Below are positions 3,324-30,681 of a stretch of DNA of 39,785 bases, in pieces. A program made the position numbers and the translations under genes. Source of the DNA: an uncultured Candidatus Saccharibacteria bacterium. GTDB taxonomy: Bacteria > Patescibacteriota > Doudnabacteria > UBA920. The stretch spans positions 1 to 39,785 of the forward strand of contig CAZPRQ010000003.1 of the NCBI GenBank assembly GCA_964589415.1, read 5' to 3'. A model generated the notes under the pieces. That model was not told where the DNA came from and searched no databases. It saw only the letters and a program-made list of their open reading frames with translations. Position 1 is the first letter of the stretch. Each line of letters starts with the position of its first letter.

Positions 3324-4085
3324 ATGAAGAAGAAATTAATTAAAAGCCAAGCAGAAATTGAGACAATCGCCGAAGGCGGCAAGCTCATTCACGATATTTT
3401 AAGAAAAACCGCCGGGCTTGTCAGGCCCGGTGTTTCAACCTGGGAATTAAACCAAATGGCGGAACAGGAAATTTACGCCATTGGAGCAAGACCCAGTTTT
3501 AAAAATTACGGACCTAAAAAAAACCCCTTTCCCGCGGGCCTTTGCACATCCGTAAATGACCAGGTTGTTCACGGCATGCCTTCTAAAACGGTAATCCTGA
3601 AGGAAGGGGATATTGTTTCGTTAGATATTGGCATGGAATATAAAAGCCTTTTCACAGACACAGCTATAACCGTACCCGTAGGCAAAGTTTCCGATGCGGC
3701 TAAAAAACTAATCGAAATTACAAAAAAAGCTTTGACTGTAGGGATTGATGCAATAAAGCCCGGCCTCAAAGTTGGCGCTATTAGCTCGGCTATACAACAG
3801 ACAGCTGAATCGTCCGGATTTTCGGTTGTAAGGGATTTGGTCGGGCACGGCGTTGGATACGAAGTGCACGAGGATCCGCCCATACCTTGCTATGGCAAAC
3901 CCACACAAGGCATTACACTGGAAGAGGGCATGGTGCTGGCAATTGAGCCCATGCTTTGCATTGGAGAACACTTTGTAATTTTTGACAGCGATGGCTGGAC
4001 AGTCCGCACAACGGACGGAGAACTTTCGGCTCATTTCGAGCACACCGTGGCTGTAACCAAAAACGGGTCGAAAATTCTCACTTAG
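3324..4085 (+). CDS. map: Type I methionine aminopeptidase
   Basis: VVHGMP, DIVSLDIG, GHGVGYEVHEDP, LAIEPM and HFEHTV metal-ligand motifs. 253 aa. Confidence 0.9.
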   Translation: MKKKLIKSQAEIETIAEGGKLIHDILRKTAGLVRPGVSTWELNQMAEQEIYAIGARPSFKNYGPKKNPFPAGLCTSVNDQVVHGMPSKTVILKEGDIVSLDIGMEYKSLFTDTAITVPVGKVSDAAKKLIEITKKALTVGIDAIKPGLKVGAISSAIQQTAESSGFSVVRDLVGHGVGYEVHEDPPIPCYGKPTQGITLEEGMVLAIEPMLCIGEHFVIFDSDGWTVRTTDGELSAHFEHTVAVTKNGSKILT

Positions 4086-5238: not shown

Positions 5239-7002
5239 TTATAGCTTATTTGCTATTTCATTTGTTAGTTTTGACACTAAATCGTTAATGCTCATTTGCC
5301 CCAAATCTTGGCCTTCTCGAGTGCGCACAGCAACCATTTTGGCATCTACTTCTTTTTGGCCAATTATAATTTGGTAGGGGACTTTACTTTGGGAGGCTTC
5401 TCGAATTTTTTTGCCAATAGATTCATTACGCTCGTCTATTTCTAAACGTAAGTCGGGCAAAACAGCCTCCAACTGCTCCCGCACTTCTTTAGCATAACCA
5501 TTTTGGTTTTCCGAAATGGGCAAAATGGCAACTTGGACAGGGGAAAGCCACAAGGGGAAAGCCCCTGCATAATGTTCTATAAGTATGCCTATAAATCTTT
5601 CTAACGATCCGTAAATAACCCTATGAATTGCAATGGGAGTTTTACGGCTACCGTCCTCTGACACATATTCCAACCCGAACCTTCTTGGCTGCTGAAAATC
5701 GAGCTGCACTGTTCCCATTTGCCAGTCCCGTCCAAGCGCGTCTTTCATTAGAATATCCACCTTTGGTCCATAAAAAGCGCCATCTCCTTCCTCTATAAAA
5801 TAATCTTTCCCGCTTTCGGCTAAAATCTTTTTTAACGTAGTTTCGGCGCCATTCCAGGTTTCAATATCGCCCATAAAGTCTTTTGGCCTGGTGCCAAGCC
5901 GAAAACGGTATTGCATGCCAAAAATAGAATAAAACAACTCCACAATTTTAAATACTTCCATATATTCCGATTCCACCATTTCCTCGGCTACATAAATATG
6001 AGCGTCATCCTGGCGAAATTCTCGAACGCGGAATAACCCGTTTAAAGTTCCGGCCAGTTCATAGCGGTGCAAATGGTCGGTGTCGCCAAGCCTTAAGGGC
6101 AGCTCTTTATACGAACGCAGCTTGCTACCAAATACCACATGGGCATTTGGGCAATTCATGGCCTTAACTCCATATTCTTCATTTTCTCCCATGTTTGCTA
6201 CAAACATATTTTCCCAATAATGTTCGTAGTGGCCGGAAGTTACGTACAACTCTTTTTTATTTAGCAGAGGGGAAACAATTTCCTGATAACCGCGTTTTTT
6301 ATGCTCTTTGCGCCAAAAATTCACCAATTCATTGTACAAAATAACTCCCTTTGGCAGCCAGTAAGGCATGCCTGGAGAAGTGGGGTGGAACATAAACAGT
6401 TCAAGCTTTTGTCCCAAAACTTTATGATCCCGTTTTTCAGCCTCTTCCAGCATTTTTAAATGGGCTTTTAAATTCTCGCTGCTTTCAAATGCCAAACCGT
6501 ACACGCGGGTCAGCATGGGATTTTTACTGTCGCCACGCCAATATGCGCCGGCAAGCTTGTGGAGCTTAAAGCACTCCGGATCTATCTCCTTCATGCTCTC
6601 CACATGACCTCCGCGGCACAAGTCTACAAATTTTCCGGATTTATAAAAAGAAATAGGTTCGCCCTTCTTAACCAATTCTTCAATAATTTCAAGTTTAAAC
6701 GGGTTTCCTTCCCAAGTTTTTCTGGCCTCGTCCGGCGTGACTTCAATTTTTTCGAACTTATCCCAAGTATGTAGCAATTTTTTCATTTGCTTCTCAATTT
6801 TAGGCAAATCGCTTTCGGTAATGGGATTTTCGCTACTTTCGAAGTCATAATAAAAACCGTCTTCCACCGGAGGACCAATGGTAATTTTTGCTTTGGGATA
6901 AAACTCTAAAAGCGCTGCCGCAAACAAATGCGCGAGCGAATGCCTAATGGCGTGGAGATGTTCGTTATTGTGTTCCATAATTGTTATATTCTGTTGTGTC
7001 AT
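5239..7002 (-). CDS. thrS: Threonyl-tRNA synthetase lacking the N-terminal TGS domain
   Basis: The protein begins almost directly at the editing-domain HxxxH motif (HAIRHSLAHL). Class II core motifs and a C-terminal anticodon-binding domain are present. The annotated ATG (7000-7002) lies inside a repeat unit, and an alternative start is at M9. Confidence 0.9.
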   Translation of the reverse strand: MTQQNITIMEHNNEHLHAIRHSLAHLFAAALLEFYPKAKITIGPPVEDGFYYDFESSENPITESDLPKIEKQMKKLLHTWDKFEKIEVTPDEARKTWEGNPFKLEIIEELVKKGEPISFYKSGKFVDLCRGGHVESMKEIDPECFKLHKLAGAYWRGDSKNPMLTRVYGLAFESSENLKAHLKMLEEAEKRDHKVLGQKLELFMFHPTSPGMPYWLPKGVILYNELVNFWRKEHKKRGYQEIVSPLLNKKELYVTSGHYEHYWENMFVANMGENEEYGVKAMNCPNAHVVFGSKLRSYKELPLRLGDTDHLHRYELAGTLNGLFRVREFRQDDAHIYVAEEMVESEYMEVFKIVELFYSIFGMQYRFRLGTRPKDFMGDIETWNGAETTLKKILAESGKDYFIEEGDGAFYGPKVDILMKDALGRDWQMGTVQLDFQQPRRFGLEYVSEDGSRKTPIAIHRVIYGSLERFIGILIEHYAGAFPLWLSPVQVAILPISENQNGYAKEVREQLEAVLPDLRLEIDERNESIGKKIREASQSKVPYQIIIGQKEVDAKMVAVRTREGQDLGQMSINDLVSKLTNEIANKL

Positions 7003-7319: not shown

Positions 7320-7382
7320 AATAACTTTTGGTTAGCACGTGTTTACAATTACTAAAAATTATTTAATATAACACAGTTGTGG

Positions 7383-7469
7383 TGCGTCATTGCGAGGAGC
7401 ACACTCTACGAAGCACTCTCTAGGTAAGGTAGTAAAATAGATTGCTTCGGATGCACTCGCAATGACACA
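7383..7469. repeat. Repeat units B (plus orientation) and C (inverted), forming a hairpin upstream of the GIY-YIG gene
   Basis: Unit B at 7383-7420 reads GCGTCATTGCGAGGAGCACACTCTACGAAGCACTCTC. The reverse complement of 7439-7469 reads GTGTCATTGCGAGTGCATCCGAAGCAATC. Confidence 0.55.
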
Positions 7470-7532
7470 CGAAAATAGTTATCCTTTTCATAATTTTTAG
7501 TAATTTAGTCTATTTAGTATTTAGTAGAGGAC

Positions 7533-9333: not shown

Positions 9334-12300
9334 TCAAACCGTATCCACCTTCCGAATACCCTGCACGGTTTTCAATTCATTCATTAACCCGGGCACCAGG
9401 CTAACCAAGGTCTGGGTCTTAATACGCTTACTTTTTTGTCCGCCTCCAACCTGCAAATAGACCTGGGCATTGCCCGGATACTTTTCCAAAATATTTTTTA
9501 TGCTATTTAGTTCTTCCAAATTTGCCAAACTGTCCATGTAAAGCGTGACTGTCTTGTCTTTTTCTATTTCCGAAAGCGCCATGGCATATAGCTCGTCCGG
9601 GGGCAGTTCTTTAATTTCATCTGCTATTAGCTTTAAATCTTCTTCCTTTTCGGAAATGCGGCCAGAGACCTGGATAATTTTATCATCATTCATTAAATGC
9701 AAAACTTTTTCCATGGTTTTCGGAAATACCAGTACCTCAATACTGCCGGTTAAATCCTGCAAAGTGAAAAAAGCCATGGGATCGTTTTTTTTAGTTAATG
9801 TCCTTTTTAGCCTGGAAATTATGCCGCCCATGACCGCGTATGTGCCCAAATCGCCGGAATTTAAATCCTTCACATTTTTAAAATTCTTCAGCACTTGACG
9901 GTAACGGTCCAAAGGATGCGCGGTTACATACATGCCCAAATGCTCCTTTTCCCAGGCAAGCATTTCTTCCTGGCTTGCCGGCTGAACCTGCCTGAACTTT
10001 AATTTTCCCATTTGCATGCCTTTGCCGAAAAGGGAAGACTGTCCGCTATTTTCGTCGCGGAAATGTTCGCGTACAAACTCCAACACTTCCTCGGTATTGG
10101 CCAGCAATTGCCCGCGCTCCCCAAAACGGTCAAGCGCCCCGCCCTTAACCAAAGCTTCCCAGGACTTCTTATTAAAATTTTTGGTGTGGACCCTAATAAG
10201 AAAATCGGATAAATTTTCAAAGCTGCGCATGGGCTCTCCGCGGGCTTGAATAATTTTTTCAATCACATCTGAACCCAAATTTTTTATGGCATTTAGGCCG
10301 AAACGAATAGTTGTGTCGTCTACCACGGTAAAATCGCCGAACGACTCATTTACGTCTGGCGGCAAAACCTGAATGCCTAAATTTTTACATTCTTCCACGG
10401 CAGCATAAATTTTATCTTCATCTCCGGATTCCGCGGTCATTACCGCGCACATAAATTCCACCGGAAAATTTGCTTTCATGTAAGCAGTTTGGTAGGAAAC
10501 CATACTATAAGACGCGGCGTGAGCCCTGCCAAAACCATAGGCCGCGAAAGGCTCAATAACCGCGAACAGTTCCGCGGCTTTATCCGTACGCATCCCGCCC
10601 TTAACACAGCCGTCTATAAATTTCACCTTCTGCTTGGCCATTTCCTCGGGAATTTTTTTACCCATGGCTTTTCGCAATTTATCCGCTTCTTCCCAGGTAT
10701 AACCCGCAATATTCACCGCGGTCAGCAGTACGTCGTCTTGATACACCAACAAACCCAGGCTCCGCTCCGTATATTCCTTCATGCGCGGATCAAAATATTC
10801 CACTTTGGTTTTGCCGTGCTGCCTGGCAATATAGTCTGGAATAATACTCATAGGACCCGGACGGTATAAGGCAATCATAGCCATAATGTCAAAAATATCT
10901 TTCGGCTTAAGTTCCTTTAAATGTCTGGTCATACCGCTAGATGCCAATTGAAAAACGCCAAAAGTAAGTCCGTTGGCTAAAAGTTTAAATGTTTTTTCGT
11001 CCGGATGCGGCAAATTATAAATATCAATTTTTATATTATGCCGTTTTTGAGAACTTTGCACCGCGGCCTCCAAAATAGAAAGGTTCCGAATACCCAACAA
11101 GTCAATTTTTATTACCCCAATAGCTTTACTGGAAGCTCCGGCATCAAGCGCGTACATATCGTATTGAGTTATGAGCCGTTCACCGTCCGGCTCTTTCTGT
11201 AAAGGACAATACTCGGTAAGGGGAGTAGGGGTTATGGCAATAGCCGCGGCATGAATGGAAGCATGTCTCGCACAGCCTTCCAATTTCTTGGCAATCTCAA
11301 TTAACATTTTAGTGTCAGGATCTTGGTTATAAACTTGCTTAAGCTCGGGGTTCATTTCCACGGCTTTTTCCAAGGTCATATGAAAACCCTGTTTGCCAAT
11401 GGGGATCATTTTGGCAATTTGGTCGCATTTGGAATAGGGGACACCCAGTGCCCGCCCCACGTCCCGAACGGCCGCTCGCGCCATCATGGTACCAAAGGTA
11501 ATAATCTGAGCCACTTTGTCATGCCCATAAGCATTGGTTATCCATGCAATTACTTCATCCCGACGGTTATCTGAAATATCCAAATCTATATCTGGCGGGG
11601 TGGGTCGATATGGGTTCAAAAAACGTTCAAAAGGCAACTGATAATACAACGGATCCACGTGGCTTATGTTTAAAATTCGCCCCACAATGCTGCCGGCAGC
11701 GCTACCACGGGTGTTGGTAATGGCGCCTATGGAATGCGCGCCAGCCACAATATCGGCCACCATAAGGAAATAGTCGGAAAAACCCTTTTGAACAATTATA
11801 TCCAGCTCATAGTCTATGCGCTTAATAACACTCTCTGGCAAAACCCCGTCTTTGCCGTACAACTGCGGCGCCTTTTCAAATACCACTCTACGTAAATATT
11901 CAGTGGTACCCAAACCTTCGGGAATTTTTACTTTCGGAAAATATCTCTGGTCTATGGGTATGTCCACGTGGCAACGATCGCTTATAAGCGAAGAATTTTC
12001 CACGGCTTCCGGTACGTCGCTAAACAATTCCAACATGCGTTCGGTGGATTTTAACGACAAATCATACCCGCGCATATCCAATCTGTCCGGATCGTTTACC
12101 GTACGAGCAGTGCCAATACAAACCATAACATCTTGAGCTTCAGCATCCTCCGGGTATATATAATGACAATCGGCAGTGGCAATAAGTGGCAAATTGTTCT
12201 TCTTGGCTAATAGAATAAGCTTGTCATTTAACTCCCGCTCTTTAGGGTCAACACTTCGACTATTCCTCTGAATTTCTATAAATAAATTTTTAGGACCAAA

Positions 12301-15395: not shown

Positions 15396-15518
15396 ATCTC
15401 CCCGCTCCGGGAATGAGAATGTTTAATGAAGGGGGGGGTTGACTTATTTAAACATTTATGTCACTATAATCGTATATGAAATTTAAGGCATTCCAAAACT
15501 CAGTATTTAATTGGTCCT

Positions 15519-15608
15519 GGACTTTGTAACCGCAAAGTCCTAACTTTGGTTTGTCTTTAAAAGATTTAACTCGAACAAACACCTTGGACTTTGCAGAGGT
15601 GTTTTTTT
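15519..15608 (+). promoter_or_regulatory. Structured leader, copy 1: P1 hairpin, P2 hairpin and a terminator whose loop is complementary to the P1 3' arm
   Basis: GGACTTTG (15519-15526) pairs with CAAAGTCC (15533-15540). GTTTGTC pairs with GAACAAAC (15549-15580). The terminator is ACACCT/GAGGTGT plus T7 (15579-15608), with loop GGACTTTGC (15586-15594). Confidence 0.45.
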
Positions 15609-15634
15609 ATTTGTAAATATTTAATAATAATTAT

Positions 15635-16327
15635 ATGAAAACTGTAGGTATAATTGGTGGTCTGGGACCTCAAACAACCTCTGAATTTTATTTAGAGCTG
15701 ATTTTCTCGTGCAAGCAATTAAATAAAATTAGCTATCCGCCTGTACTCATTAATAGCATTCCATTACCATTTAGTATCGAAAAGGATGCAATAGCAGATG
15801 GCCTTGGCGAAGAAAGGTGTTTGCCGTATTTGTTGAAAGTAGCAAAAAATTTAGAAAAAGCAGGCGCTGACTTTTTAGTCTTGCCCTGCAATTCTTTACA
15901 TGTGTTTATAAAGGATATTCGGCAAGCCGTTAAAATACCTGTCTTAAGTATTTTGGAAGAAACTTCCAAATTTCTTAAAAAACAAAACATACACAAAGTT
16001 GGAATTATTGCGACCCCAATAACGGTAAAAAATAGGCTGTATGAGAAACTTCTGAAAGCAAGCAGCATTATCCCGATTATTCCAGATAGTTTACAACAAG
16101 CTAAAATCGGTAAGCTCATACTTAACCTGGTCTCTAACCGCTATGATAATAAAGACAGGGTTATGTTGCTAAAAGTTATACAAGATTTTAGAAAAAAGAA
16201 AGTTAAAAACATTATATTAGCCTGCACGGATTTGCAATTGTTAATTCCCAAGCAGGATAACTTCAAAATATACGATACAATGAAAATCTTGCTTGATGCT
16301 ACTGTGAAAAAGGTAATTGGAATATGA
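15635..16327 (+). CDS. Aspartate/glutamate racemase family protein (aspartate racemase-like)
   Basis: N-terminal VGIIGGLGPQTTSEFY. The two catalytic-Cys contexts are LPCNSLH and LACTDL. 230 aa. Confidence 0.75.
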   Translation: MKTVGIIGGLGPQTTSEFYLELIFSCKQLNKISYPPVLINSIPLPFSIEKDAIADGLGEERCLPYLLKVAKNLEKAGADFLVLPCNSLHVFIKDIRQAVKIPVLSILEETSKFLKKQNIHKVGIIATPITVKNRLYEKLLKASSIIPIIPDSLQQAKIGKLILNLVSNRYDNKDRVMLLKVIQDFRKKKVKNIILACTDLQLLIPKQDNFKIYDTMKILLDATVKKVIGI

Positions 16328-16366
16328 AATATACATCACCATACAAATTAAACAACTCAACCTGGT

Positions 16367-16452
16367 GGGCTTTGCATTCTCGCAAAGTCCTAGGTTAATG
16401 TTGTCTTATTTTTTAAGAACAAGCACCTTCTGGATTTTGCAGAAGGTGTTTT
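16367..16452 (+). promoter_or_regulatory. Structured leader, copy 2, with the same architecture as 15519-15608
   Basis: GGGCTTTGC (16367-16375) pairs with GCAAAGTCC (16382-16390). TTGTCTTA pairs with TAAGAACAA. The terminator is CACCTTCT (16424-16431) with AGAAGGTG (16441-16448) plus TTTT, with loop GGATTTTGC (16432-16440). Confidence 0.45.
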
Positions 16453-16552
16453 ATTTTGTTGATTAATAATTTTTAAAAAGTTATTAGCCATCAACACGAA
16501 ACATCTTGAAGATGTTAGTGTTGAACATTCCAAATCAAACAGGAGGAATTAC

Positions 16553-19021
16553 ATGCGTAAACTTCAAGAAGTCCTTAAAGCAGAAGAAACTATGGTGGGA
16601 GGAAAGGCACTTAGACTAGCCCAGATACAAGCTCTCGGTTTGCCTGTCAAACAGGCACTGGTACTGGATTCCTCTGAGGTGGCCAGTATTGTAGCTTGTG
16701 GACAATGTCCTAACCTTGTCGCGGAAGAAGCCTCACAAACTTTGACTATAAAATCTCATGGAATCGCTGTTCGCAGTTCCGCTGCGGGCGAGGATGGGTT
16801 ACTGTCTTGGGCGGGGCAATTCAAGAGCAAGCTATTTGTTACCCTAAATACTCTAGAAGCAGCAGTTCTAGAGTGCGCAATGGCTATACAAGGCAGCTCC
16901 GTTAGCTCTTATGCTCAATTGCATAATGCTTCTGTCGTCAACCTTGCACTAATCCTGCAAGATATGGTGAAAGCTAAAGTTGCTGGAGTCCTTTTTACCC
17001 ACGACCCCATAACCCTTAACGACCAAGTTATGGTTATTGAGGTGGTTGCGGGAGTAGCTGAAGGCCTAGTATCAGGCTTAATTGAACCTAGACGATACTA
17101 TGTTGATGCAATTACGAGCCAGGTCATCAAAGAGGAGGGGGCGGCGTCTCCTATTCTAAACCAGGGTCAGATAATAGAACTAGTTCAGGTGGGATATACG
17201 CTTCGAACGGCTTTCAACTGTGGTCAGGACGTTGAGTGGGCAATTGAAGAGGAAAGCAATTTGCTTTTTATTAACCAATCGCGAAATATTACTACTGATG
17301 GCAAAATTTCAGCAACACAGATTGTAATCTCCTCAGTAGATAATGCTTTAGCTTTGGAGGGAAGCAGATTGACCCAACTTGGTTGCAATCTTCTTCCGGA
17401 TGTTTTAAGTGACCAAAACATTAGCGAAATTCTTACCCGCTATCCGCACCAAATGAGTTTAGGACTCTTCACTTACTGTTTTGCTCATGGAGAAGGAGCT
17501 ATTCGTACAGCTCGTAACCAAATGGGGTATGACATTGGGGAAGAGTTAGTCACCGGCTTCTTTAGCCTTGTAGGAGGCCAACCAAGGTGTAGCATCATTC
17601 ATGACGCGTTCACCTATCGTATTCAAGGAATACCCTTGGACGATTACTGCCAGCTCGTGAATCACTATCTGGAACGCATACAGGAGGATTCATCCCTTGG
17701 AAACTATCCAGAAGTACAGCTGTATGAACAAAACCCCAGTCAAGAGTTTTTAGCGGAGATTTTTGGAGCGGATAAAGCTGAGGGGTACTTTGCAGCATAC
17801 CAAAAATTCTTCGCTGGAATTCAACAGCTGGAGGATACTCTTTACGCACAATGCCGCGCCTCACTCGTTCAATGGGATGAACAGTTACAAGAAGTAGCTC
17901 CGACCAGAGGAATGGAACTGCAAATTCTGGCAAGTAATTTTTTCACCGTGTGCGATTTACTTCGCACTGAGGCTTGCCCCTTGTTTGTGAAAGTTGCGCG
18001 ATTGGGATTCTTTGCCTTTACCAGACTTAGAAATCTTTTAACCGAGATGTTCGGGGATAAAGGAGAGAGCTGCCTCAATACGCTAACTGGTGGAGCATCC
18101 TTGGAAGACAACCCCAACCTCCAGTTTAACGTTCATCTTCATGAGCTTAAACAAGGTACGCGTAGCTTTGACAATATTGTTGCTCAATATGGTCACCTCG
18201 GAAGCCATGAACTCGAGCTTTCTACCCCTAGATACCAGGACCAACCAAACCTGATACATGAAATGGCGGGAAAGCTTGATGATACATTCGAACATCATCT
18301 TGTGGAAAGCCAGGATGAAGCTAAAAAGCTAGAGGTTGAGTTACTGAAGGCTGCAGGTTCAAATACCGACCAACTAAGACGCGAAATAAAGATGGCTAGG
18401 ACTTATCTTCCACTAAGAGAAGTGGTTAAGTTCCACTTTCTGAAAGGGTATGCCATCTTACGTCAACTAGCCACCTCAATAGAAAGCACCTTAGGGTGGT
18501 CAGAGGGACTAATCTTTCACCTTAACCCAGAGGAGGTATTTAAGATAGCCAATAACTATGCTCATTTACAACTTTTGGCAACTCAAAGGAAAGCGCAACG
18601 AGAATTAGAAAGACTCATTGAAGTTCCGGCAGTGGTATATGCGAATAAGCTTGAAGTAATTGGACAATGTGTAAACATCTCGTCCAATACACTGAAAGGA
18701 ATTGGTGTGACTAATGCTGTAACTGAGGGGGATGTCGTGGTAGTCACGGAGCTAAACGATACAGCTTCGCTTTCCCACCTGCACGCTGGCAGTATACTCG
18801 TAACCACAACAACAGACCCCGCTTGGTCCCCAGTACTTGCAATTATAGGGGCACAGGGCGGTCTAATAACGGAGGTCGGCGGATTGCTCGCTCACGGAGC
18901 AATATACGCAAGAGAAATGAACATTGCTGCTGTACTCAACGTACCTCACGCTACTAAAATCCTTAAAACAGGAATGAAGGTGCGGGTGAATGGTCCATTA
19001 GGCATTGTTGAAGTTTTGTAA
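16553..19021 (+). CDS. PEP-utilising dikinase-like phosphotransferase with a PPDK_N ATP-grasp domain, an unassigned central region and a swivel phospho-His domain (RPH/PpsA-like architecture)
   Basis: N-terminal motifs GGKALRL, AVRSSAAGEDG, LFTHDPIT and QDVEWAIEE. The C-terminal motif is TTTTDPAWSPVLAIIGAQGGLITEVGGLLAHGAIYAREMNIAAV. No PEP/pyruvate TIM-barrel domain is present. A strong SD, AGGAGG, lies 7 nt upstream. Confidence 0.75.
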   Translation: MRKLQEVLKAEETMVGGKALRLAQIQALGLPVKQALVLDSSEVASIVACGQCPNLVAEEASQTLTIKSHGIAVRSSAAGEDGLLSWAGQFKSKLFVTLNTLEAAVLECAMAIQGSSVSSYAQLHNASVVNLALILQDMVKAKVAGVLFTHDPITLNDQVMVIEVVAGVAEGLVSGLIEPRRYYVDAITSQVIKEEGAASPILNQGQIIELVQVGYTLRTAFNCGQDVEWAIEEESNLLFINQSRNITTDGKISATQIVISSVDNALALEGSRLTQLGCNLLPDVLSDQNISEILTRYPHQMSLGLFTYCFAHGEGAIRTARNQMGYDIGEELVTGFFSLVGGQPRCSIIHDAFTYRIQGIPLDDYCQLVNHYLERIQEDSSLGNYPEVQLYEQNPSQEFLAEIFGADKAEGYFAAYQKFFAGIQQLEDTLYAQCRASLVQWDEQLQEVAPTRGMELQILASNFFTVCDLLRTEACPLFVKVARLGFFAFTRLRNLLTEMFGDKGESCLNTLTGGASLEDNPNLQFNVHLHELKQGTRSFDNIVAQYGHLGSHELELSTPRYQDQPNLIHEMAGKLDDTFEHHLVESQDEAKKLEVELLKAAGSNTDQLRREIKMARTYLPLREVVKFHFLKGYAILRQLATSIESTLGWSEGLIFHLNPEEVFKIANNYAHLQLLATQRKAQRELERLIEVPAVVYANKLEVIGQCVNISSNTLKGIGVTNAVTEGDVVVVTELNDTASLSHLHAGSILVTTTTDPAWSPVLAIIGAQGGLITEVGGLLAHGAIYAREMNIAAVLNVPHATKILKTGMKVRVNGPLGIVEVL

Positions 19022-19027
19022 CAACTG

Positions 19028-19061
19028 GGGCGGAAACAAATCACCGTTTCTGCCCTTTCTT
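19028..19061 (+). terminator. Intrinsic terminator
   Basis: GGGCGGAAAC (19028-19037) pairs with GTTTCTGCCC (19046-19055, one G-U pair), followed by TTTCTTATT. Confidence 0.55.
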
Positions 19062-19083: not shown

Positions 19084-19614
19084 ATGAAAAAGTTAATTGT
19101 GTTCGTTTGTAATGGTAATATTCATCGTTCAGTTATTGCAGCTGAATTTTTTTCAAATATTGTAAATAAACTAGGATTAAAAAGTAAATATAAAATAGAC
19201 TCGTACGGACTCCAAGGAACAATGGGCACGAGACTACCGTTGCATAAAAAATTAATAGAATATTCCAAAGAATGGAAAGCAGCTGCTCCCGCTTTGCGTA
19301 AATTTAATATTGATATTAGTAACCATTCTTTTCAAAAAATTACCCCTGCGGTTGTAAAGAAAGCTGCGGTTATTATTGCTATGGATAAAAAAACCCATTC
19401 TACTGCTGTAAATTCCCTAATTAAACAATTTCCTAAATCAAATGGTAAAATACATGGCTTTACAGAACTAACTAGTAGCCATAAAGGTATTAAAGACCCT
19501 GCGGGGAGTAATAATAAAAAATTAAATTATTCAATTATCAAAAATATTAATTTGACTTTACTTAAAAATTCAAGGGCTATCTTGTCCTGGGCAAACCATG
19601 ACAAATATGAATGA
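19084..19614 (+). CDS. Low-molecular-weight phosphotyrosine phosphatase / ArsC-type CX5R phosphatase family protein
   Basis: Active-site loop VFVCNGNIHRS (C-X5-R-S) and a later KDPAG (DP general acid). The gene is very AT-rich. Confidence 0.7.
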   Translation: MKKLIVFVCNGNIHRSVIAAEFFSNIVNKLGLKSKYKIDSYGLQGTMGTRLPLHKKLIEYSKEWKAAAPALRKFNIDISNHSFQKITPAVVKKAAVIIAMDKKTHSTAVNSLIKQFPKSNGKIHGFTELTSSHKGIKDPAGSNNKKLNYSIIKNINLTLLKNSRAILSWANHDKYE

Positions 19615-24540: not shown

Positions 24541-24691
24541 TTAGGACTTACGCACCTCAAGAGGGTCATCCTTGCGCAGAATCATTTTGATTTATAGCCA
24601 ATGCCTGATTATTATCAGATTTTGCGTTTTTAAAATATCGCCTGCGGCGCAAGGATGACCCTCTAAAGATTATGCAACGCGTAAGCCCTGA
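24541..24691. mobile_element. MITE-like palindromic element with no ORF and TTAGGACTTACGC-type termini
   Basis: The left end is TTAGGACTTACGC. The reverse complement of the right end is TCAGGGCTTACGC. A nested inverted repeat is formed by AGAGGGTCATCCTTGCGC (24560-24577) and GCGCAAGGATGACCCTCT (24647-24664). Confidence 0.5.
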
Positions 24692-27638: not shown

Positions 27639-27714
27639 GCCGTTGTAGCTCAGTTGGTAGAGCAACTCCATGGTAAGGAGTAGGTCATCGGTTCAATTCC
27701 GATCAACGGCTCCA
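27639..27714 (+). tRNA. tRNA-Thr, anticodon GGU, with encoded CCA
   Basis: Hand-folded cloverleaf. Acceptor GCCGTTG/CAACGGC, D arm GCTC/GAGC, anticodon arm ACTCC-ATGGTAA-GGAGT, T arm ATCGG-TTCAATT-CCGAT. Confidence 0.85.
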
Positions 27715-27716
27715 GA

Positions 27717-27782
27717 CTTCGCCAAGGCTTCGCCTGGTCACGTCGTTCGCGAACGACGGTGACTGGCTTACGCCAAAGAAGG
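27717..27782. repeat. Long imperfect palindrome in the tRNA-Thr/tRNA-Tyr spacer
   Basis: The core is GTCACGTCGTTCG|CGAACGACGGTGAC (27737-27763). The flanking arms are CTTCGCCAAGGCTTCGCC and GGCTTACGCCAAAGAAGG. Confidence 0.45.
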
Positions 27783-27821
27783 TTTGTCGAAAGTTGGATT
27801 AAATTCAATTTATTTATATAT

Positions 27822-27908
27822 GGGCAGGTAGCGAAGCGGTCAAACGCGACTGACTGTAAATCAGTTGGCTTTATGCCTTCATAGGTTCGAATCCTATCCT
27901 GCCCACCA
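27822..27908 (+). tRNA. tRNA-Tyr, anticodon GUA, with a long variable arm and encoded CCA
   Basis: Acceptor GGGCAGG/CCTGCCC, anticodon arm ACTGA-CTGTAAA-TCAGT, variable stem GGC/GCC, T arm ATAGG-TTCGAAT-CCTAT. Confidence 0.85.
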
Positions 27909-29928: not shown

Positions 29929-30157
29929 TTAGGACTTACGCGTTTGAGCAAGTCGGGGTCCCCATTCTTCTGCTTGGCAGGAATGGGGTGATTAATACGA
30001 GGCGTTTTTTGCGGATTTTATGAGGCGTAGTTTAACTACGACGAATAAAAACGTAAGAAAAACAACGAAGTAATTGGCCAAACCGCTTGCGGCGCAGCCA
30101 TTGTTCCTGCAATCTGGCTTTGCCAGTTGCAAACAATGGCAAGCGCGGAAGTCCTAA
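29929..30157. mobile_element. Complete 229-bp MITE-like element with 14-bp terminal inverted repeats and no ORF
   Basis: TTAGGACTTACGCG (29929-29942) and CGCGGAAGTCCTAA (30144-30157) match at 13 of 14 positions. Internal hairpins are CCCCATTC/GAATGGGG and GCCATTGTT...AACAATGGC. GTA is present on both flanks. Confidence 0.55.
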
Positions 30158-30236: not shown

Positions 30237-30310
30237 TGGCAGGGGGTGTAGGAATCGAACCCACGTAAACCGATTTGGAGTCGGTTGTATTACCACTATA
30301 CGAACCCCCC
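30237..30310 (-). tRNA. tRNA-Trp, anticodon CCA, with encoded CCA end
   Basis: The minus strand reads GGGGGGT-TC-GTAT..ATAC-A-ACCGA-CTCCAAA-TCGGT-..GTGGG-TTCGATT-CCTAC-ACCCCCT-G-CCA. Confidence 0.85.
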
Positions 30311-30605: not shown

Positions 30606-30681
30606 TGGAGCCGGCTGCCGGACTCGAACCGGCCACCTACGGTTTACAAAACCGTTGCTCTACCGGATGAGCTAAGCCGGC
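30606..30681 (-). tRNA. tRNA-Thr, anticodon UGU, with encoded CCA
   Basis: The minus strand reads GCCGGCT-TA-GCTC..GAGC-A-ACGGT-TTTGTAA-ACCGT-AGGTG-GCCGG-TTCGAGT-CCGGC-AGCCGGC-T-CCA. Confidence 0.85.

Follow-up and report, generated by a model that had tools for sequence, protein, structure and literature searches.

Two serial elements before a racemase gene and a dikinase-like gene of an uncultured Candidatus Saccharibacteria bacterium are probably trp-type leader-peptide attenuators

In the trp operon of Escherichia coli, the trpL leader (RF00513) carries a short open reading frame (ORF) with two Trp codons near its end, its four RNA segments form 1:2, 2:3 and 3:4 helices of which the last is an intrinsic terminator, and its stop codon is positioned so that a terminating ribosome masks region 2. 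The general mechanism of such ribosome-mediated attenuation is laid out in PMC1183508 and PMC6614838, and the latter places trpL of S. meliloti ahead of trpE(G). Another Trp-containing leader peptide, TnaC, recognises free L-Trp through particular residues of the peptide and prevents Rho-dependent termination (PMC8429421). Here we describe two elements of about 90 nucleotides (nt) in a 39,785-nt stretch of DNA from an uncultured Candidatus Saccharibacteria bacterium (contig CAZPRQ010000003.1, positions 1 to 39,785; hereafter the window), one lying before an Asp/Glu-racemase-family gene and the other before a dikinase-like gene. Because a conserved leader ORF places two Trp codons at the start of the first hairpin, P1, we read both elements as trp-operon-type, ribosome-mediated transcription attenuators with a leader peptide, arranged in series, and we consider this very probable. 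We regard the element as a new leader-peptide attenuator family of the trp type, working by the ordinary textbook mechanism, and it would most likely place the racemase and the dikinase-like gene under tryptophan-starvation control. What the analysis demonstrates is the leader ORFs with their Trp codons, the helices, the conservation of these features and a switch in silico. Full-text literature searches returned no paper on leader-peptide attenuation in the candidate phyla radiation (CPR) or Saccharibacteria.

All features of the locus lie on the + strand. The promoter of the operon (15439-15470) consists of a -35 box TTGACT (15439-15444), a 20-nt spacer and a -10 box TATAAT (15465-15470), which ends 5 nt before the ATG of leader ORF 1 (15476-15529; MKFKAFQNSVFNWSWTL). 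This ORF has its Trp codons at 15512-15514 and 15518-15520, in the order WSW, and its stop codon TAA (15527-15529) falls inside the loop of P1. In copy 1, P1 (15519-15540; -12.3 kcal/mol) is made up of region 1 (15519-15527, GGACTTTGT), which opens with the GG of the second Trp codon, a loop (15528-15531) and region 2 (15532-15540, GCAAAGTCC). Folding places next a spacer hairpin, P2 (15545-15575), whose sequence and length differ among relatives, and then an intrinsic terminator (15577-15609) with its stem at 15577-15585 and 15596-15604 (core CACCTT/GAGGTG) and its T-run at 15602-15608. The terminator apex (15586-15595) holds region 3 (15586-15594, GGACTTTGC), which pairs with region 2 in a 2:3 duplex of -15.9 kcal/mol that only 1 of 500 shuffles equalled. 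Behind this first attenuator stands the racemase-family gene (15635-16327; 230 aa; Pfam Asp_Glu_race and TIGR00035 'amino acid racemase').

Copy 2 begins at the very end of that gene, the ATG of leader ORF 2 (16324-16326) overlapping the racemase stop codon TGA (16325-16327) as ATGA. Leader ORF 2 (16324-16398; MKYTSPYKLNNSTWWALHSRKVLG) carries tandem Trp codons (WW) at 16363-16368, and its stop codon TAA (16396-16398) is immediately 3' of region 2. P1 (16367-16390) comprises region 1 (16367-16375, GGGCTTTGC), a loop (16376-16381) and a region 2 (16382-16390) identical to that of copy 1, and is extended outwards by pairing of 16359-16364 with 16391-16396. The P2 hairpin predicted by folding (16401-16422) is followed by an intrinsic terminator (16423-16458; stem 16423-16432 / 16440-16449, then TTTTATTTTG), and a terminator scan also picks 16421-16451. 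Region 3 (16432-16440, GGATTTTGC) corresponds to the loop plus the top stem pair, and the 2:3 duplex has an energy of -13.6 kcal/mol, equalled by 4 of 500 shuffles. The gene behind this second attenuator (16553-19021; 822 aa) has PPDK_N and PEP-utilizers domains and resembles phosphoenolpyruvate (PEP) synthases and rifampicin phosphotransferases; no NCBIfam model attains its cut-off on the protein. Both copies fold as P1, P2 and a terminator with T-run, at -26.4 kcal/mol (z -2.3) for copy 1 and -39.3 kcal/mol (z -6.4) for copy 2, and they align at about 78% column identity, the strongest blocks being CGCAAAGTCCTA, TTGTCTT, GAACAA, CACCTT and TGGAYTTTGCAGA. A sequence-only reading of this stretch had described the three-part architecture, and had proposed a competition between terminator and antiterminator through the common 9-mer. 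Every motif it named was recovered in place: the 9-mer is exact in both copies, its complement at the terminator apex is exact in copy 1 and has 1 mismatch in copy 2, and the P1 5' arms show 1 mismatch each, G-U compatible. The competition agrees with masked folding, duplex energies and the position scan given below.

Racemase homologues are numerous (69-87% identity), and the contigs of eleven were examined; the closest homologue comes from a Candidatus Saccharibacteria metagenome-assembled genome, and others are from Patescibacteria. Racemase orthologues of eight other lineages are likewise flanked by the element, irrespective of the genes around them. In all of the loci L006/L007, L008/L009, L010, L011, L012, L013 and L016 it stands directly upstream of the racemase gene, usually with a second copy directly downstream ('up' and 'down' copies), and the neighbourhoods differ, including glycolysis genes, SecA, a Mur ligase, trpE/G, trpS or a dikinase-like gene. 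In 15/15 copies from 9 lineages, an ORF of 12-16 codons starts with ATG and runs in frame into the P1-proximal TGG; 0/15 copies have such an ORF in the other two frames. A pair of Trp codons within three codons is present in 13 of the 15, reading W-x-W where the copy is 'up' and WW where it is 'down'. Both TGGs are retained while the intervening codon changes (TCC, AGC, CGC, CAA, GGC and AAC, for S, S, R, Q, G and N); the N-terminal residues of the peptides are not conserved, and those after the Trp codons are (A/T/G, then L). A TTGACA-17-TAnnAT promoter stands ahead of 8/8 'up' copies, taken from different loci, and its end lies 5-9 nt upstream of their leader ATG, so that the leader mRNA would be leaderless or nearly so, and the copy 1 leader of the window is probably translated from such a transcript. 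The sequence-only reading had offered the promoter of the window as a weak candidate; the candidate is there, but a position conserved across 8 loci does not fit the word weak. The 'down' copies have a leader ATG that overlaps the 3' end of the gene in front.

A covariance model (R1) built from 12 copies in relatives assigned 80.9 and 91.3 bits to the two copies of the window, at E values of about 1e-13 to 1e-15. In about 150 kb, comprising the window and 10 loci, it found nothing besides the racemase-flanking copies, which identifies the element as a gene-linked leader and not a dispersed repeat. The homologous copies that the earlier reading had proposed to look for thus exist, with compensatory changes in P1 and the terminator. 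Among the aligned cells of P1 and the terminator 92.5% are paired, in an alignment that was itself fitted to the model, 10 pairs are changed on both sides and 0/500 shuffles match; slid controls give 41-61%. For the 2:3 pairs, the corresponding values are 86% and 36-56%, and the clearest compensated case is L016_dn, in which region 2 reads TACAAGTCCTG and the apex CAGGACTTGTA, versus GCAAAGTCC and GGACTTTGC in the window. The alignment is conserved only in regions 1-4 and at the Trp codons; the junctions and P2 are variable, with P2 insertions of 30-40 nt in L010_up and L013_up. The exact pattern GCAAAGTCCTA-N28-58-GGAYTTTGCAG had no match in GTDB representative genomes and one in JGI metagenomes, a chance match inside a coding region; the source genome is therefore absent from both collections, and the search for dispersed copies extended to the window and the related loci. 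L017 has no clear leader. The element is also absent from L003, a Saccharibacteria metagenome-assembled genome (racemase 75% identical), where only CTAG palindromes are seen; downstream of the racemase gene of L003, a long structured leader (6780-6980) with a T-box-like GGGTGGCACCGTGG motif, scoring below the Rfam gathering threshold, precedes a 460-aa ORF which, by synteny with L014/L017/L019, we take as a putative aminoacyl-tRNA synthetase gene.

In the mechanism that we propose, the short leader ORF would be translated while RNA polymerase transcribes the leader, the two Trp codons lying at the foot of P1; translation would start on a leaderless transcript in copy 1 and through coupling to the racemase stop codon, via the ATGA overlap, in copy 2. 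When charged tRNA-Trp is scarce, the ribosome would stall at the Trp codons and mask region 1, the 5' arm of P1, leaving region 2 free to pair with region 3 at the apex of the terminator hairpin. The 9-bp 2:3 helix would be incompatible with the terminator stem, and transcription would read through into the racemase gene (copy 1) or the dikinase-like gene (copy 2). With ample Trp, the ribosome would proceed to the stop codon in or just after P1 and mask region 2, the terminator would form and transcription would stop. Without any translation, P1 and the terminator would both form, leading to termination too. With region 3 at the apex of the terminator, its helix with region 2 would form, together with the terminator stem, the topology of a pseudoknot with connecting loops of 0-1 nt; as a 1-nt loop is unable to span a 9-bp helix, we accept that the two helices are mutually exclusive.

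The switch was followed in silico by a ribosome-position scan, in which the RNA was masked from its 5' end to 12 nt past the first base of the A-site codon and then refolded. A minimum-free-energy (MFE) structure that had the 9-bp 2:3 helix and lacked the terminator was obtained only when the A site was placed at codons 12-15 in copy 1 or at codons 13-16 in copy 2, and each of these four-codon spans contains both Trp codons. At all remaining A-site positions, the stop codon included, P1 and/or the terminator formed in both copies. Masking of region 1 gave an identical switch in L006_up, L010_up, L012_up and L012_dn. Across copies, the 2:3 duplex ranged from -12 to -21 kcal/mol and was better than nearly all of 500 region-2 shuffles.

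The genes around the element in relatives point to tryptophan. A TrpR-like gene (PF01371) adjoins the racemase gene in L010, L011 and L013, and the L013 copy also matches TIGR01321 TrpR at 4e-12, below that model's cut-off. A TrpR-type palindromic operator abuts the -35 box, as GCGTACTAGTACGC in L008 (about 9795-9810), L009, L010 (about 3897-3912) and L013 (about 2478-2493), and as GTGCACTAGTGCA in L011 (about 1032-1046); none is found at the attenuator promoter in the window, L006, L012 and L016. The gene order in L016 is attenuator, racemase, a PF00579 (tRNA-synt_1b) gene and a second attenuator, and size together with synteny suggests that the PF00579 gene is trpS, the synteny being with L014, whose confirmed tryptophanyl-tRNA synthetase (TrpRS) scores above the TIGR00233 trpS cut-off. 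The racemase gene is followed in L013 by an attenuator, trpE and trpG, and in L011 by a SerK/SbnI-like gene and TrpB2 (725 bits versus a cut-off of 366). In L014, L017 and L019/L020 (racemase 69-74% identical), a class-I synthetase gene (PF00579) and a TrpR-like gene are followed by the racemase gene. The RNA upstream of the racemase gene is unrelated in sequence in L014 and L019, yet Trp-rich leaders are again found there, namely ...NSWWGAS... and, each ending at a stop codon and preceded by a Shine-Dalgarno sequence, MWW and MAWSSDDDWWF. These Nomurabacteria-like relatives have two successive Trp-codon leaders before the racemase gene (5493-5640 and 5878-5975 in L019; 5381-5480 and 5859-5975 in L014). 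A small W-rich ORF (...RWGGWGGGP) lies between the two. That only the Trp codons are kept at this distance favours codon-based starvation sensing over an arrest peptide or a ligand pocket.

Several points weigh against attenuation by Trp codons as just described. We infer leader translation, ribosome stalling, Trp-dependent read-through and the direction of regulation from the features above, and the 12-nt ribosome footprint of the scan is an assumption. That the 2:3 helix and the terminator stem exclude each other in copy 1 is a steric argument, as RNAfold cannot model pseudoknots. In 6/12 tested copies the terminator stays the MFE structure despite a masked region 1, and read-through there would need kinetic control, which is how read-through in the E. 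coli trp operon is usually described. Two 'down' copies of relatives have a single Trp codon (W-R). Covariation of the 2:3 pairs was not above shuffles in a fixed-column alignment, a test constrained by scarce variation and by an indel (GTCC versus GCC), and duplex energies were used instead. Finally, the window contains no Trp-biosynthesis gene and no TrpR operator beyond chance, the genes of the locus being only those for the racemase, the dikinase-like enzyme and a low-molecular-weight (LMW) phosphatase.

One competing explanation keeps the RNA switch downstream and changes what the ribosome reads: a W-x-W/WW-[A/T/G]-L nascent peptide would arrest the ribosome in response to a small molecule, either free Trp, as for TnaC, or an antibiotic, with no role for a shortage of tRNA-Trp. 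The conserved residues after the Trp codons could be taken this way, as could the resemblance of the downstream gene to rifampicin phosphotransferases and PEP synthases, and PMC7298713 reports that trp-attenuator leader peptides can have antibiotic-related roles. Those residues, however, are encoded by the P1 stem, so that constraint on the RNA accounts for them; the peptides show no N-terminal conservation, the distant relatives retain the Trp codons only, and the TrpR, trpS and trpE/G context fits starvation sensing. We therefore hold an arrest peptide to be improbable. A ligand-binding riboswitch of a new class, in which a metabolite directly stabilises P1 or the alternative helix, would explain the three-hairpin architecture with its alternative pairing and the lack of an Rfam match. 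At gathering thresholds Rfam recognised four tRNAs only in the window, a permissive scan of 15400-16560 gave as best hits rli60 (26 bits versus 60) and PyrR (25 bits versus 54) at E values of about 0.5-0.65, and nothing was reported at the leaders of 10 related loci. The unfamiliarity claimed by the sequence-only reading thus stands; its idea of a ligand-binding element, which overlooked the leader ORF with its Trp codons, most likely does not, and ligands such as Asp, Glu or PEP are unsupported in view of the TrpR-like genes, trpS, trpE/G and TrpB2 of the relatives. Apart from the Trp codons and the terminator stem, only the three mutually complementary segments are conserved; the variability of P2 and the junctions, with the long P2 insertions, leaves no conserved pocket, and a riboswitch has no need of an ORF kept in frame in every copy. 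A riboswitch was rejected on these grounds and is very unlikely.

It is just as hard to believe that the elements are no regulatory switch at all, being constitutive terminators, hairpins derived from miniature inverted-repeat transposable elements (MITEs) or repetitive extragenic palindromic (REP) sequences, or a DNA operator for a dimeric protein. Copy 2 does lie directly 3' of the racemase gene, and P1 shares TAGGACTT with the MITE-like ends in the window, a likeness that had led the earlier reading to suggest a protein-binding site on the DNA; TAGGACTT is also over-represented, with 8 occurrences versus 0.78 expected. But copy 1 lies downstream of a conserved promoter, which makes it a leader and not a 3' end, and compensatory changes are seen on both strands of P1 and the terminator. 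The MITE and operator readings were rejected, as there are no further copies in the window or in related loci, the half-sites across the P1 loop are 4-7 nt apart depending on the copy, and relatives do not keep the TA needed to complete TAGGACTT. Ribosome-mediated attenuation at Trp codons remains our preferred reading.

A further conserved hairpin, CAACAC...GTGTTG (16492-16523), separates terminator 2 from the Shine-Dalgarno sequence of the gene behind it and carries a compensatory G-C to A-T change in the window; the hairpin, in the general form CA[G/A]CAC...GTG[C/T]TG, occurs in 6 loci before different genes (dikinase-like, small ORFs, trpE). Directly after the dikinase-like gene, a terminator-like hairpin (19027-19056) precedes the LMW-phosphatase gene (19084-19614), which may for this reason not be co-transcribed. 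The tRNA-Trp (CCA) gene of the window (30237-30310, - strand) lies 14 kb from the attenuators, and the three other tRNAs are at 27639-27908 and 30606-30681. MITE-like elements with terminal inverted repeats of the TAGGACTTACGCG type are present at 1-44 (cut by the edge of the window), 24542-24690 and 29930-30156, the last adjoining the tRNA-Trp gene. A 50-nt inverted repeat (76% complementary) containing GTCATTGCGAG/CTCGCAATGAC is located at 7347-7505, and its CTCGCAATGACA motif is also seen in an intergenic region of L010 near 5335.

With a textbook mechanism, the gain lies in annotation and physiology and not in concept. An apparent 'unknown riboswitch' becomes a legible regulatory signal, predicted to turn genes on when charged tRNA-Trp is low, and a leader family absent from Rfam is added. 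The main value is a hint that the Asp/Glu-family racemase, and here the PEP-synthase/Rph-like phosphotransferase, belong to a Trp-starvation response, which is a testable functional clue for two poorly annotated enzymes. The racemase is widely syntenic with TrpRS and TrpR in Patescibacteria. Members of CPR/Saccharibacteria are difficult to culture and are thought to depend on a host for amino acids, and Patescibacteria are mostly unable to make Trp. More tentatively, and with rather more doubt than belief, we suggest that the attenuators mark an unrecognised tryptophan-starvation regulon in Patescibacteria, with the racemase (and here the dikinase-like enzyme, behind a second, coupled attenuator) acting in Trp salvage. 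One possible route, suggested by L011 (racemase, SerK-like gene, TrpB2) and L016 (racemase, trpS), would be racemisation of D-Trp or D-Ser feeding a kinase, TrpB2 and TrpRS. By analogy with Sinorhizobium rnTrpL, abundant terminated leader RNAs with the common 9-mer could also act in trans.

Compared with E. coli trpL, the elements have the same short leader ORF with two Trp codons near its end, the same four segments with 1:2, 2:3 and 3:4 helices ending in an intrinsic terminator, and a stop codon from which a terminating ribosome would mask region 2; several relatives, moreover, add to the attenuator a CTAG operator and a repressor of the TrpR type, which parallels the dual control of the E. 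coli trp operon. In contrast to trpL, they show no sequence or covariance-model similarity to RF00513 (best Rfam E about 0.5), region 3 is the terminator apex (loop plus 0-4 stem nt) and not the whole 5' arm, an extra P2 hairpin lies inside the antiterminator, the leader ORF begins 5-9 nt after the -10 box and is probably leaderless, and the targets in the window are a racemase and a dikinase-like enzyme instead of trpEDCBA. The T-box leaders and TRAP-binding (G/U)AG repeats of Firmicutes likewise make a Trp-responsive choice between terminator and antiterminator in 5' leaders, but here no T-box is matched at the gathering or E-value thresholds of Rfam, there is no triplet-repeat array, and the element is only about 90 nt long. 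With TnaC and other arrest peptides, the elements share a short Trp-containing leader peptide that is read by the ribosome and decides whether transcription continues; unlike TnaC, they have an intrinsic terminator with 1:2/2:3/3:4 logic, and their distant relatives conserve the Trp codons only. Finally, as in E. coli pheM-pheST and Sinorhizobium trpL, regulatory codons in an upstream ORF would control genes outside a full biosynthetic operon, the attenuator standing before racemase-trpS in L016 and before trpE-trpG in L013. The present locus differs from these two in belonging to another phylum (Patescibacteria/Saccharibacteria), in having two attenuators in series within one operon, and in the predicted translational coupling of the second leader to the stop codon of the preceding gene.

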